Positions 2,121 through 25,531 of a stretch of 64,000 nt of DNA are shown here, piece by piece. The stretch is taken from sequence record OM386655.1; one strand, written 5' to 3'. A program made the position numbers and the translations under genes. This stretch comes from Escherichia phage vB_EcoM_ESCO10. The notes beneath the pieces were generated by a model. It did not search any database, had not been told where the DNA came from, and worked only from the letters and a program-made list of their open reading frames with translations. How positions within the stretch are numbered: position 1 is the first letter of the stretch; each line of letters opens with the position of its first letter.

Positions 2121-2146
2121 GTTAACCTCCAGTAGTTGATAGGTCT

Positions 2147-2175
2147 ATAGTATCATTCCTACTGGAGATGTAAAC
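2147..2175 (-). promoter_or_regulatory. early promoter cassette (GTTTAC -35, 17 nt, TACTAT -10) inside stem-loop
   Basis: Minus-strand GTTTAC at 2170..2175, TACTAT at 2147..2152; inverted repeat CCAGTAG/CTACTGG (2129..2135, 2159..2165). Confidence 0.6.
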
Positions 2176-2177
2176 AA

Positions 2178-2519
2178 CTAATAGAAACTTTTTTCGCCGG
2201 TTTGTCCGCTAAACCAGGCTGATTGGGTATTAGGTTTCCGTTGTTGCTCAATACGGGTACGATATTCTTTTCTGATGGCACAGAGGTCATCCTGGAAGTC
2301 GCCTGCCAACTTTACCTGCTTACGGTCTAGATTTATTAAGGCCTGAGTCTTAGCGGCCAAGGCCAGTCTCTTGTAGTCTCCTTCTTCACAATCAGTTTTA
2401 TAAACTCTATTAGCGTATCCGTCGATAAATTCTTTATCATAGTCTTTGATAGACTGTTCCATGGCATTAGAGTACTTCAACTCTGCTTTTATAAGGTCAT
2501 AACTAAATTGTTCAAACAT
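2178..2519 (-). CDS. hypothetical protein
   Basis: 113-aa ORF; AAGGTA SD; co-directional packing. Confidence 0.5.
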   Translation of the reverse strand: MFEQFSYDLIKAELKYSNAMEQSIKDYDKEFIDGYANRVYKTDCEEGDYKRLALAAKTQALINLDRKQVKLAGDFQDDLCAIRKEYRTRIEQQRKPNTQSAWFSGQTGEKSFY

Positions 2520-2528
2520 AATTTACCT

Positions 2529-3509
2529 TTATTTTAAAAGTGTAACTTCAGCAATTTCAGCCCAATCATTAGAATCAGTAGCAATGAAATCAGCCAAATA
2601 GAGGGCGGTACGCAATGAAACATTACGCAAACGTGATACATTAGCCTTCATCCATGAGAGTGCCTGGTAAGTCTGAGCGTCAGTCAGACCACGCTTCTGC
2701 ATCATATCTGTAGACAGGATAACGTCTTCAACACGAACCATAATCTCTTCGTTAGAGTGAACACCCAGGTCTAAGTAAACTGAACGTGATACTAAAGCTT
2801 GGAGATGCGGAGAAAGTTTAGTTCCACGTTCCAATTCACGGTCAATATCAACGTTAGTGATGAATACGACGGTGCCTTCATACTCGAATTCTTTATCGAT
2901 ATTTTTATCATCAAGATAAGAACTTGAAGTGCTCCAGCATACCTTACGTTTCTCACCGGTGTCCAATGCCGCTTTCAGAAGGTTCAGGATATCCATGTCA
3001 GAGAATACATCAACATCATCGATAAGAAGAACACTATTAGGGCCGCGGTTATTCCAAAGCTGCTCGTAAAGACCGATTCCACTAATCTTTCCGTTGATTG
3101 ATTTATATTCGATAGTTTCATTTTCGTGGGCATTCTGTAATGCTTTATCCAATGAATATGTTTTACCAATACCTGCGGCACCAGAGATGATAAGGGAACG
3201 AATTTTACCATCGATGATTCCATTAGTCATCATGTTCATTACTTTAAAACGTTTGTTGATGCGGTGTTTCATTTCGTCCTGGGATTCAGTTAAGACGGCA
3301 GGGGTTTCAACACCTTCAGTTTCGATATCAGATTTGAACACCCATACACCACGCTCTACACCATCAATCTGAACAAAGACCTTACCATCGCCGAGGTGGG
3401 CTTCTGATTCATGAATTTTATTAGGGAACCAGGTTTTACCTGAACTCATGAACGTACCAGAGATTTCGTTACCGCGGTAGATGCCTTTGTTGATTTTGAT
3501 AGTTAACAT
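2529..3509 (-). CDS. P-loop NTPase (AAA-like) with ~100-aa N-terminal extension
   Basis: Walker A GAAGIGKT and Walker B LLIDDVD; start moved from GTG 3524 to ATG 3509 behind AAGGA SD; early-promoter cassette upstream. Confidence 0.6.
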   Translation of the reverse strand: MLTIKINKGIYRGNEISGTFMSSGKTWFPNKIHESEAHLGDGKVFVQIDGVERGVWVFKSDIETEGVETPAVLTESQDEMKHRINKRFKVMNMMTNGIIDGKIRSLIISGAAGIGKTYSLDKALQNAHENETIEYKSINGKISGIGLYEQLWNNRGPNSVLLIDDVDVFSDMDILNLLKAALDTGEKRKVCWSTSSSYLDDKNIDKEFEYEGTVVFITNVDIDRELERGTKLSPHLQALVSRSVYLDLGVHSNEEIMVRVEDVILSTDMMQKRGLTDAQTYQALSWMKANVSRLRNVSLRTALYLADFIATDSNDWAEIAEVTLLK

Positions 3510-3544
3510 TTTATTATCCTTCACTCATTTGTTTTGATAGGTCT

Positions 3545-3573
3545 ATCTTAACACGATTAATCAGGTTGTAAAC
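3545..3573 (-). promoter_or_regulatory. early promoter (GTTTAC -35, TAAGAT -10)
   Basis: GTTTAC at 3568..3573, 17-nt spacer, TAAGAT at 3545..3550; conserved leader TAGACCTATCAAAAC. Confidence 0.5.
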
Positions 3574-3592
3574 AATTTTTTGCACTAAACCC

Positions 3593-3618
3593 AAAAAAAG
3601 GAACCCGAAGGTTCCTTG
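3593..3618 (-). terminator. rho-independent terminator
   Basis: Minus-strand hairpin AGGAACC-TTCG-GGTTCCT followed by a U7 run, directly after the stop of gene 3621..3905. Confidence 0.7.
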
Positions 3619-3620
3619 TA

Positions 3621-3905
3621 TTATTTCTTACAACCTACATATTTAGGCATATGGCAGAAAACAGAATCGGTAACTACTCGACCTTTGGCCCATGCTTCCT
3701 GTGCTTTACCGTGAGTAGTATTCACATAGCTGGATTTAATATTCTCGATACCTTGAGAATGTGATGCGTGTGCAGAACCATTAGAAGGACCTGCTGACTG
3801 ACTTGAACCTTGACCGCCCGGGCCTGATGTGCCTTCAGTAGCCAGTACACCAAAAGACATAACAGCGGCCAACAGGCCTATAGCCACTTTTAATTTTAAT
3901 TTCAT
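3621..3905 (-). CDS. small secreted protein (signal peptide, Gly/Ser-rich)
   Basis: N-terminal MKLKLKVAIGLLAAVMSFGVLA; AAAGGTG SD; hairpin+T-run terminator just downstream. Confidence 0.6.
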   Translation of the reverse strand: MKLKLKVAIGLLAAVMSFGVLATEGTSGPGGQGSSQSAGPSNGSAHASHSQGIENIKSSYVNTTHGKAQEAWAKGRVVTDSVFCHMPKYVGCKK

Positions 3906-3924
3906 ATTTTCACCTTTTATTAAC

Positions 3925-24071: not shown

Positions 24072-24491
24072 TTAACTTGACCATCCCCAACCTTCGGAAG
24101 GACCATCGTAGTGTACACAAATATCAGGTGAAATATTAAAATTGGCTTCGTTCGAAGAAAAAACACCCAACTTTTTACCAAACTCACTGAAGCAGAATTG
24201 TTCGCCGCCTGGAGCCCAAACATCTTCAAATAAAACAGTGAATAGCCAGCCGGCAATTTCATCTGCATCAAATTCTGTTACACCTGAGCACATTTCATAT
24301 AACTCGTCATCACAGACTGTAGCCACGATATGGGCCGAATGTTCTTCAGATTTTAACCAGATGCGAATTAAATTACCATCAAAACAATTGTAGTTAATTT
24401 CGGATGGCCGGCAGTTATAAAATACTTCTGTAGCGATTTCTGGATTTTCCCAGGTTTCGTCGTTAAAATTGATAAGAATAGGAGTAATCAT
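24072..24491 (-). CDS. hypothetical acidic protein
   Basis: 139-aa ORF; GAGGAAAAT SD; MotA-box middle promoter upstream. Confidence 0.55.
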   Translation of the reverse strand: MITPILINFNDETWENPEIATEVFYNCRPSEINYNCFDGNLIRIWLKSEEHSAHIVATVCDDELYEMCSGVTEFDADEIAGWLFTVLFEDVWAPGGEQFCFSEFGKKLGVFSSNEANFNISPDICVHYDGPSEGWGWSS

Positions 24492-24569
24492 ATTTTCCTC
24501 ATTAGTTGATTATTCTATTATGAAAGGCTCTTTGAGGGAAGAACCTTTGGTAATAGAGGGTACTTATTA

Positions 24570-24594
24570 ATAATAACACACTGCTCTTAAAGCA
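24570..24594 (-). promoter_or_regulatory. putative MotA-dependent middle promoter
   Basis: Minus-strand TGCTTTA box (24588..24594), 12-nt spacer, TATTAT -10 (24570..24575), upstream of gene 24072..24491. Confidence 0.45.
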
Positions 24595-24603
24595 TATTAC
24601 TTG

Positions 24604-24984
24604 TTAACCTTCGTCAACAATAGTATGGGTGTTGGCATTAACAATCTGCCACCAGTCAAAACGGTTGGAACCATATTGAGGCTTATTCTCGTTTTCTTTA
24701 ATGATATCACGCAGTTCGTCTTCAGTAGCAGCTTTTGCAATTAAATCTGCATAACCGCCACGGGGATAATAGCTATCGCCAGCAAAGAGTAAAAAGTTTG
24801 TTTTAATATTCTTGAATTCTTCAAGAGTAATAACCGTTCCAGATGGTTGAACAATATCTACGTAACTATATCCTAATTTCTGGGCTTCATTTACTGCTTC
24901 AAGCAGGGTGTCATGGGCCCATCCGATTTGACAATCCGGTTTTTCAGATGGGTTGGCTTGATAATCTGCGTACACTTTATACAT
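24604..24984 (-). CDS. hypothetical protein
   Basis: Start placed at ATG 24984 behind AAAGGTGAG SD (track 25032). Confidence 0.5.
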   Translation of the reverse strand: MYKVYADYQANPSEKPDCQIGWAHDTLLEAVNEAQKLGYSYVDIVQPSGTVITLEEFKNIKTNFLLFAGDSYYPRGGYADLIAKAATEDELRDIIKENENKPQYGSNRFDWWQIVNANTHTIVDEG

Positions 24985-24985
24985 T

Positions 24986-25171
24986 TTACTCACCTTTAGA
25001 GATTTTATCCATAACGAAAGAGATTGAACCAATTAAAAATGCCACTACTAAAGAGATTGTATTCTCAGAAGTTGAAAGCAAATTCAACATGAATCCTGCA
25101 AACATACTAAAACCAAAAGCAGTAATAGCGACCAGTGCAGTAACATTTCTAATTAATTCACAACGTTTCAT
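24986..25171 (-). CDS. small membrane protein
   Basis: Start moved from TTG to ATG 25171 behind GGAGAA SD; two hydrophobic segments. Confidence 0.5.
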   Translation of the reverse strand: MKRCELIRNVTALVAITAFGFSMFAGFMLNLLSTSENTISLVVAFLIGSISFVMDKISKGE

Positions 25172-25207
25172 TTTATTCTCCAATCACTCATTTGTTTTGA
25201 TAGGGCT

Positions 25208-25237
25208 ATAGTATCATCACTAGAGCCCGTTGTAAAC
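25208..25237 (-). promoter_or_regulatory. early promoter cassette
   Basis: GTTTAC 25232..25237, TACTAT 25208..25213; GGGCTCTAG/CTATAGCCC inverted repeat. Confidence 0.55.
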
Positions 25238-25240
25238 AAT

Positions 25241-25465
25241 TTATTCAACACCAGCTGCTTTCAAAAGTTTTTTAAGATTGGCTGTGCCCTGAGCAGAAAA
25301 CGTGACCTTGCCACCTTTTTCACTGATAGAACCAACCAATTTGGCAAGTTTATCATTAGGAATTTTTTTAAAATCGGCCAATGTTCCATCAAAGGTTTTT
25401 GAAACAAAAGGCAGTTCGTCTTCGTGTCTTTTAGCTTCTGTGATAAATTCTTGATATGTTTTCAT
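25241..25465 (-). CDS. internal-protein-like head cargo protein (position of T4 ipI)
   Basis: Begins MKTYQEFITEAK at ATG 25465; overlapping early and late (TATAAATA) promoters upstream; adjacent to 57B as ipI is in T4. Confidence 0.7.
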   Translation of the reverse strand: MKTYQEFITEAKRHEDELPFVSKTFDGTLADFKKIPNDKLAKLVGSISEKGGKVTFSAQGTANLKKLLKAAGVE

Positions 25466-25502
25466 TTTGATTTCCATTTGGTTGGTTTGTTTTGATAGGG
25501 TA

Positions 25503-25531
25503 ATAGTATCATATTTATAAATGCTGTAAAC
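25503..25531 (-). promoter_or_regulatory. overlapping early and late (TATAAATA) promoters for IP-like gene
   Basis: GTTTAC 25526..25531 and TACTAT 25503..25508; exact TATAAATA (25512..25519) sits inside the spacer. Confidence 0.55.

Follow-up and report, generated by a model that had tools for sequence, protein, structure and literature searches.

A candidate early-only translational gate within the sigma-70 early promoters of denV, regB and nrdC.8 in T-even-like phages

The early promoters of phage T4 carry GTTTAC at -36 to -31, a -10 element at -12 to -7, an A-rich stretch at -40 to -44 and "additional regions of consensus" (PMC1524935, PMC2988021). In T4-type phages such promoters have also been described as early promoter-stem-loop (PeSL) elements, whose PST/T4-type consensus is given in a passage of Comeau et al. 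(PMC4122927) as TTTACW-N17-TAYWAT. A further system is the hairpin mechanism of T4 gene e (PMC3014915). Here we compare with these systems the repeated early promoters in 64,000 nucleotides of Escherichia phage vB_EcoM_ESCO10 (OM386655.1; this whole stretch is referred to as the window), chiefly those in positions 2,121 to 25,531, where the repeat agrees with the PeSL consensus and gene e has its hairpin counterpart at 14705-14730. We put at about even the chance that T-even-like phages (T4, Dhakaviruses and other sampled T4-like lineages) share a conserved "early-only" gate in which the interior of a sigma-70 early promoter, left untranscribed by that promoter, doubles as an anti-Shine-Dalgarno (anti-SD) arm for the promoter's own gene, in particular at denV, regB and nrdC.8.

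The window comes from a Dhakavirus, a T4-like phage, and is 96.4% identical to Escherichia phage vB_EcoM-VR5 over positions 2000-12000. A search for GTTTAC-N16-19-TANNAT gave 12 matches, all on the minus strand, where 1.18 were expected, and none of 100 shuffles reached 12; the -10 plus leader TACTATAGACCTATCAA, with at most three mismatches, was matched nine times against 0.16 expected. The copy at 16957-16985 has a GTGTAC variant of the -35, and two additional degenerate copies, at 13743 (ATTTAC/TAGAAT) and 18504 (ATGTAC/TACTAT), bring the total to 15 (copies are named by their higher coordinate). The layout is an A/T-rich upstream element, the -35 GTTTAC, a spacer of 17-18 nt, the TG-extended -10 TGATACTAT and a conserved start-site region, AGACCTATCAAC, followed by a short leader of 18-40 nt with a GGAG-type SD. 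In the 13 window copies scored, A+T makes up 65-90% of the 20 nt 5' of the -35; TG 5' of the -10 was flagged in nine copies, and in each copy an SD and ATG lie within 18-42 nt of the putative start site, taken as the 7th nt after the -10 following the rule of PMC1524935. The same cassettes are present in the syntenic region of T4, and 5' ends from the orthologous T4 denV and mobD.5 early promoters have been detected by primer extension (PMC1702504).

We identify the repeat as the sigma-70 early promoter of a T4-like phage, an element already published as the PeSL, which drives tightly packed minus-strand early genes. This is established biology, and the promoter repeat itself is already known. 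A sequence-only reading of the window had listed 13 of the copies as a shared minus-strand cassette of GTTTAC, spacer, -10 and leader, had called them early promoters and had linked them to promoter-stem-loop shuffling modules. The motif counts bear out the cassette, the match to T4-type early promoters (Pe) its identity, and the passages describing PeSLs in PMC2839356 and PMC4122927 the link; all coordinates stand as well, except that the copy placed at 7394-7422 is at 7395-7423. Within the consensus cassette, a 5-bp inverted repeat, TGATA...TATCA, surrounds the -10 (e.g., 2136-2156 and 11303-11323, minus strand), and its T4 counterpart, TGGTA...TATCA, keeps the pairing through G·U. At copies 2175 and 11342 this repeat pairs as an inner helix, below the outer stem that masks the SD, and it may explain part of the conserved "leader".

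The following four copies have predicted stems whose 3' arm lies on the SD of the downstream gene (each copy of the repeat was folded from the -35 to the ATG and compared with 200 shuffles, giving z):

2118-2175, minus strand: early promoter of the nrdC.8 homologue, with the -35 at 2170-2175 and the -10 at 2147-2152, ending at the ATG (2120); 5' arm CTCCAGTAG at 2159-2167 in the spacer, 3' arm CTACTGGAG at 2127-2135 with the SD, putative start at ~2140 between the arms; fold -19.3 kcal/mol, z -4.28.
11284-11342, minus strand: regB early promoter, with the -10 at 11314-11319; 5' arm TCTCCTGTAG at 11326-11335, 3' arm CTACAGGAGA, which is the SD, at 11293-11302; fold -18.0 kcal/mol, z -5.70.
14146-14205, minus strand: denV early promoter, with the -10 TATGAT at 14177-14182; 5' arm ATCTCCTGT at 14191-14199, 3' arm ACAGGAGAT, which is the SD, at 14154-14162; fold -20.8 kcal/mol, z -4.52.
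18424-18504, minus strand: degenerate promoter of a 66-aa open reading frame (ORF; 18426), with ATGTAC, an 18-nt spacer and TACTAT at 18475-18480; 5' arm TATTCTCTT at 18469-18477 across the 3' end of the -10 and the discriminator, 3' arm AGGAGAATA at 18430-18438 with the SD; fold -20.9 kcal/mol, z -4.44.

In predicted folds of the promoter-proximal and the read-through transcript, respectively, the probability that the SD is unpaired changed from 0.49 to 0.01 at copy 2175, from 0.45 to 0.19 at 11342, from 0.31 to 0.07 at 14205 and from 0.56 to 0.20 at 18504; the GGAG core of the denV copy went from 0.44 to 0.00. Considering all genes folded in long context, the SD core was less than 0.1 unpaired in 6 of 11 promoter-proximal genes and in 6 of 37 other minus-strand genes (Fisher p=0.018). 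The sequence-only reading had named four copies in which the 3' arm overlaps or equals the SD. That description fits 2175, regB and denV but not the copy before 7130-7366 (see below), and it missed copy 18504 both as a promoter and as a further case of masking.

The strongest part of the case for this putative gating is comparative. For denV, 32 distinct leaders of T4-like phages were folded: the mean unpaired probability of the GGAG was 0.34 in the proximal transcript and 0.03 in the read-through transcript, with values below 0.1 in 29 of the 32, compared with a mean of 0.19 in chimeras carrying the upstream region of other promoters (Mann-Whitney p=5e-14). The denV stems have two geometries. 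One has its 5' arm in the -35/-10 spacer (arms TCCTCCAAG/CTTGGAGGA, CTCCGTTTG/CAAACGGAG and TCTCCTGTAGATG/CATCTACAGGAGA), and in the other the 5' arm runs across the 3' end of the -10 and the discriminator and stops just 5' of the start (TAGTGTTCTC/GAGAACACTA, TAGTAGCCT/AGGCTACTA and GATGTCTTCC/GGAGGACATC). Leaders of the second type were aligned (alignment A2) for covariation analysis: RNAalifold recovered the helix with compensatory changes in 3 of 8 pairs, in which variable bases of the -10 hexamer covary with those right before the ATG. Pairing in this alignment was 90.9% as against 42-60% with the partners slid, and the covariation score was reached by 3 of 500 shuffles. Column-based covariation was dropped for the spacer-type leaders (alignment A1), whose consensus structure is not scorable because MAFFT sets the arms of the lineages one column out of register; these leaders were judged by the cognate/non-cognate and chimera tests instead.

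The regB leaders fall into six lineages plus T4, each with its own lineage-specific stem. Stem energies were -14 to -22 kcal/mol for cognate arms and mostly -6 to -15 kcal/mol for cross-lineage combinations, and the SD is masked in five of the six lineages by arms that differ, for example the 13-bp TTCTCCTCTTTAT/ATAAAGAGGAGAA; masking extends to T4, whose arms, UUCCUCUUGAC/GUUAAGAGGAG, include two G·U pairs. The nrdC.8 family is thinly sampled, with relatives in two lineages, or three including T4, and the T4 arms (GUUCCUCUGU/ACGGAGGAAC) are unrelated to those of the window. The claim of the sequence-only reading that the SD is free in cassette-started transcripts and masked in read-through transcripts is thus supported, at the level of predicted folds, by folding and by compensatory variation at denV, regB and nrdC.8 in multiple lineages, and SD gating of a gene-specific subset of promoters may be called comparatively well supported.

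A different arrangement occurs at the denV loci of jumbo phages. In three of these (L057, L063 and L067) a G+C-rich hairpin with a T run, for example GGGTTGAC...GTCAGCCC+TTTTT, overlaps a TTGAC -35 and lies ~40-70 nt upstream of the gene; L061 is apparently arranged alike, with a slightly different stem. Such terminator-promoter composites match the RB49 type of PeSL and contrast with the SD masking seen in T-even-like phages.

We think it fairly probable that translation of the masked genes is gated to promoter-proximal transcripts, as an early-promoter version of the mechanism of T4 e, soc, 49 and I-TevI. The 5' arm would lie in DNA that is not transcribed from the gene's own promoter, namely the -35/-10 spacer or the stretch from the 3' end of the -10 through the discriminator, and the 3' arm would be the SD of the downstream gene. 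A transcript from the own promoter would start ~7 nt after the -10, so that the 5' arm would be absent and the SD open. One started upstream would contain both arms, and the hairpin would fold once the SD emerges, blocking 30S binding. Early transcripts are known to run on into downstream genes (PMC2988021), and we found no terminator between e and the denV promoter, 500 nt downstream of e; late gene e mRNA running into denV would be silent for DenV. Synthesis of DenV, RegB, NrdC.8 and the product of the 66-aa ORF (18426) would be confined to the first minutes of infection, when each gene's own early promoter is active. The early promoter of regB shuts down after 2-3 min, and the regB SD is itself cleaved by RegB (PMC3014915); a masked SD in read-through RNA would restrict RegB synthesis further. 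Secondary structure shields GGAG from RegB (PMC3014915, PMC1702504), and paired GGAG sites would be expected to resist its cleavage. The fact that the putative gate has been rebuilt with unrelated arms and in two geometries argues for selection on function, not on sequence.

Across the copies as a set, the complementarity between spacer and leader is real. Duplex energies of cognate relative to permuted spacer-leader pairs gave z values of -4.3 in the window, -7.3 in T4 (n=26 promoters) and -9.2 for the two pooled, with 0 of 20000 pooled permutations equally strong; when only the SD region was considered the pooled z was -5.4, again with 0 of 20000. Exact 7-mer matches to the anti-SD numbered four against 0.30 expected. 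Promoters are not enriched for their own anti-SD 4-mer (7 vs 6.4 expected), and a generic anti-SD in the promoter consensus was rejected on that count. Since the arms occupy the variable spacer and leader, are copy-specific and show no 4-mer enrichment, the stem is a gene-specific addition and not part of the repeat, contrary to its description in the sequence-only reading as a property of the cassette. That reading had also placed an inverted repeat around the -10 in most copies. Five of the 15 clearly have one, beating all 200 shuffles (2175, 11342, 14205, 18504 and 22156; z -4.3 to -5.7), 16985 is moderate (z -2.8) and 21699, 25237 and 63432 are marginal (z -1.8 to -2.0). The folds of the other six (3573, 7423, 13743, 22496, 25531 and 59406) were no different from those of their shuffles. 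The remaining copies, and the gene e hairpin, are as follows:

22099-22156, minus strand: early promoter of the e.7 homologue; 13-bp stem at 22119-22150, core ATGGGCTCAT/ATGAGCCCAT, around the -10, SD free; fold -20.1 kcal/mol, z -4.71.
21624-21699, minus strand: early promoter of the e.6 homologue; stem GAGGGCA/TGCCCTC at 21664-21685 around the -10 TATAAT, SD unmasked; z -1.87.
16917-16985, minus strand: promoter with the GTGTAC variant; 10-bp stem AGGTCTATAG/CTATAGACCT at 16951-16978, 3' arm across the -10 and discriminator; z -2.78.
25169-25237, minus strand: early promoter of the trna.4 homologue; interrupted stem GGGCT.../...AGCCC at 25203-25228; z -1.97.
3507-3617, minus strand: early promoter 3545-3573; no bracketing stem, z -0.31; intrinsic terminator with a UUCG loop at 3598-3617 just upstream.
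7364-7461, minus strand: promoter 7395-7423 of the 78-aa ORF 7130-7366; only CCUC/GAGG-type complementarity, z +0.26; intrinsic terminator at 7436-7461 just upstream.
13687-13743, minus strand: degenerate promoter (ATTTAC/TAGAAT) of a 119-aa ORF; no significant stem, z -1.5.
22420-22496, minus strand: early promoter of the e.8 homologue; weak bulged pairing UUCUUCCA/UUGGAGAA, z -0.25; terminator at 22634-22657, ~140 nt upstream.
25463-25531, minus strand: early promoter without a stem; late promoter TATAAATA at 25512-25519 inside the spacer; z +0.26.
59345-59406, minus strand: early promoter without a stem, outside the span of the sequence-only reading; z +1.28.
63371-63432, minus strand: early promoter with marginal structure, outside the same span; z -1.78.
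14705-14730, minus strand: SD-masking hairpin AAUACCUCCU/AGGAGGUAUU of gene e (lysozyme, ATG 14704), with the late-promoter-like AATAAATA just upstream.

Copies 13743, 25531, 59406 and 63432 have neither a convincing stem nor a hairpin nearby. At 22496 the predicted SD accessibility was 0.36 in the proximal and 0.10 in the read-through transcript, and T4 e.8 is arranged alike. The overlapping early and late promoters of copy 25531 precede a small ORF located where T4 has the internal-protein gene ipI.

When the window is compared with three related Dhakaviruses, homology breaks within cassettes far more often than the 3.8% expected (breakpoints in cassettes: VR5, 7/22, p=1e-5; FB, 4/22, p=8e-3; C6, 7/28, p=6e-5), in keeping with the association of PeSLs with the boundaries of insertions, deletions and replacements in plastic regions. 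Junctions at shared -35 or -10 motifs occur at 14200-14211, where the denV breakpoint is at the -35, at 25237-25245, making copy 25237 a recombination junction relative to VR5, FB and C6, and at 18474 (vs VR5 and C6), inside the -10 of copy 18504. The denV module (13732-14205) and the e.7/e.8 block (22097-22659) have ~90% identity to T4, compared with ~66-78% for most other segments that align to T4, which suggests, from these alignments, recent inter-lineage exchange bounded by promoter cassettes. In addition, the T4 denV promoter-hairpin cassette (L002 17356-17414) is nearly identical to the regB cassette of the window (11284-11342), and T4 regB has a different cassette from that of the window. 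These relationships support the PeSL view that promoter and gene move as a unit, probably with the gate moving along.

Of the alternatives to gating, the least credible is that the complementarity is chance, produced by pyrimidine-rich spacers lying beside purine-rich SDs, and it is already disfavoured by the data. Six of the 15 copies do fold like shuffles, the anti-SD 4-mer of a gene is about as common in other promoters as in its own, and non-cognate chimeras already lower SD accessibility to ~0.19; but chance does not produce the permutation and 7-mer results given above, or stems of 9-13 bp with unrelated sequences before the same genes in many lineages, complete with compensatory pairs. 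Scarcely more probable is that the inverted repeats act as DNA, as cruciforms or recombination signals for shuffling, with no role in RNA. The enrichment of breakpoints in cassettes, the recurrence of the T4 denV cassette 5' of regB here and the mini-circle recombination of PeSLs reported in a passage of PMC2839356 would fit such a role. However, because the arms are copy-specific they offer no homology between cassettes, the junctions fall at the shared -35/-10 motifs, and the 3' arm is placed according to the SD and not to a DNA landmark. Many stems also need the G·U pairs of the mRNA-sense strand: sense duplexes were more stable than antisense duplexes (Wilcoxon p=3.6e-5; T4 regB, -21.6 vs -15.2 kcal/mol), and the gap is large at T4 regB, nrdC.8, motB.2 and the promoter at 166807 (ndd.4-ndd.5 region) because those stems use G·U pairs. 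This asymmetry of predicted stabilities points to RNA structure in the mRNA sense.

Two explanations that place the hairpins in RNA are unlikely to a lesser degree. The stem-loops could be terminators or attenuators of upstream transcription, the function proposed for PeSLs, with the SD overlap incidental, which we consider improbable. In its favor, a passage of Arbiol et al. (PMC2839356) describes stem-loops between the -35 and -10 or over the -10, one of which cut lacZ expression like a strong terminator, and the stems at 22156, 21699 and 25237 are G+C-rich. By sequence criteria, however, none of the stems bracketing a -10 is terminator-like, as they have loops of 8-28 nt and lack a following T run, A-rich sequence following the SD-type 3' arms; intrinsic termination was rejected for them on these criteria. 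Canonical terminators with UUCG or GAAA loops are present separately, at 3598-3617, 7436-7461 and 22634-22657, upstream of copies 3573, 7423 and 22496. The first two of these copies have no significant masking stem and the third has only its weak bulged pairing, a distribution that fits terminator and SD mask being two alternative insulations from upstream transcription, in numbers too small to test. Termination also leaves unexplained why the 3' arm tracks the SD and pre-ATG bases by compensatory change in many lineages. Slightly more room, though still little, must be given to the possibility that the hairpins act on read-through RNA in another way, by shielding intergenic GGAG sites from RegB and so keeping long polycistronic RNAs intact, by stabilizing the 3' ends of upstream messages or by coupling to the translation of the upstream ORF. 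GGAG in early-mRNA SDs is a RegB cleavage site that structure protects (PMC3014915, PMC1702504), the upstream stop codons are 10-11 nt 5' of the 5' arm in all three main cases, and stems off the SD (22156, 21699 and 16985) are conserved too, so that another RNA-level role must exist. The GGAG of T4 denV, however, is RegB-resistant through its sequence, even when unstructured (PMC1702504), and protection alone therefore leaves the consistent masking at denV unexplained. By our estimate, a ribosome halted 10-11 nt upstream opens at most the first pair, which makes coupling unlikely. These other roles are, moreover, compatible with translational gating.

Several observations weigh against translational gating, or narrow its reach. 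Only three to five of the 15 copies mask the SD, and masking at copy 7423 is not supported (SD accessibility 0.59 proximal and 0.46 read-through; z +0.26). SD accessibility in the proximal transcripts is only moderate, at ~0.3 to 0.5, the spacer-type hairpins have large loops of 20-28 nt, and the start lies between the arms only if it is the 7th nt after the -10, positions that were taken from the -10 itself. One regB lineage (L008-10) and a third nrdC.8 lineage (L025-27) have the -10 bracketed and the SD free, and the 5' arm of a natural nrdC.8 variant (L029) contains a mismatch. Since the orthologue sets are related by descent, their p-values overstate independence. Finally, the stems around the -10 without SD contact (22156, 21699, 16985 and 25237) are not explained by the gate model, and such -10-only stems have kept their position relative to T4 with a change of sequence: the T4 e.7 stem, ATAGGCTNAT/ATGAGCCTAT, differs from that at 22156 by a compensatory A-U to G-C change, and the T4 e.6 position carries an unrelated stem, ATTAGA/TCTAAT, compared with that at 21699.

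The genes of the studied span are on the minus strand throughout, as is every gene of the annotated VR5 early region (nrdC, tk, vs, regB, denV, ip, e, tRNA). Pfam matches identify RegB (REGB_T4) at 10828-11286 and DenV (Pyr_excise) at 13732-14148, and an Rfam search of the window returned two tRNAs and nothing else; these are a pair, Arg-TCT and Met-CAT, at 23909-24064 (minus strand), and VR5 has the same pair. Gene order in 12340-14210 is e, denV, 119-aa ORF, ip7, compared with e, ip3, ip7, denV in VR5, and the junctions fall at the -35 of the promoter and at the stop codon of denV. The window also has two segments that are specific to it: a 540-bp insertion relative to VR5 at 3625-4162, with two small ORFs and a MotA-box-like middle promoter (3943-3966) inside, and a 200-bp segment at 9274-9476. 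The homing-endonuclease gene of VR5 (gp105) is missing from the window, at 9073/9076.

If the gate is real, it would add a cis-encoded layer to the temporal control of T4-type phages, and abundant middle and late read-through RNA would be silent for denV, regB and nrdC.8 and probably RegB-proof too. It would explain how some early proteins cease to be made while their coding sequences are still transcribed from upstream middle or late promoters, and would bear on the point from T4 omics that transcript and protein timing do not always match (PMC9697503), a paper whose main text holds nothing useful on the timing of DenV or RegB. The reading of PeSL stem-loops would be revised as well: at least some would not be terminators but would accompany the gene as translational insulators, and promoter, gate and gene together would be a self-contained mobile expression module.

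The window's promoters are like T4 Pe in their -35, spacer, TGn-extended -10, A-rich upstream element and extra start-site positions, and in lying 5' of early ORFs on the early strand; they differ in the consensus after the -10, which is TACTATAGACCTATCAAC in the window and TACTATACAACTATCAAC in T4. In the relevant passages of Arbiol et al. (2010; PMC2839356) and Comeau et al. (2014; PMC4122927), PeSLs share with the window's elements the combination of promoter, stem-loop, SD and start codon, the location in intergenic gaps, the enrichment at boundaries of insertions, deletions and replacements, and a stem-loop between the -35 and -10 or over the -10. A stem of PeSL type is present in the window, significant in five or six copies and marginal in three, and three copies have a terminator hairpin 5' of the promoter, as the passage by Comeau et al. 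describes for PST/T4 PeSLs. The role published in those passages is termination or attenuation, whereas the window's bracketing stems are without terminator features, and in the key cases the 3' arm is, unlike in the PeSLs described there, the SD itself, apparently maintained by covariation. SD sequestration is not proposed in these passages of PMC2839356 and PMC4122927.

The same logic is found in T4 e, soc, 49, I-TevI/II/III and segB, and in Aeh1 mobE, in which a helix in the long transcript covers the SD and a promoter within the hairpin gives short transcripts that are without the 5' arm and are translated (PMC3014915, PMC2988022). In these cases the promoters are late (gp55, TATAAATA) and expression is delayed to late times, whereas the putative gates of the window use sigma-70 early promoters. 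The TATAAATA motif is not in the hairpins at 2175, 11342, 14205 and 18504. Valerie et al., in 1986, are said to have noted stem-loops before ipIII, ipII, denV and orf61.9 (regB) in T4 58.3-65.5 kb, reportedly only as a potential to form such structures; we take these to be the same hairpins as those found here in T4. With the embedded promoter early instead of late, the predicted outcome is reversed to early-only translation, and SD gating in this gene-specific subset appears to be the early-promoter counterpart of a mechanism already known in T4, where it has so far been described for late genes.

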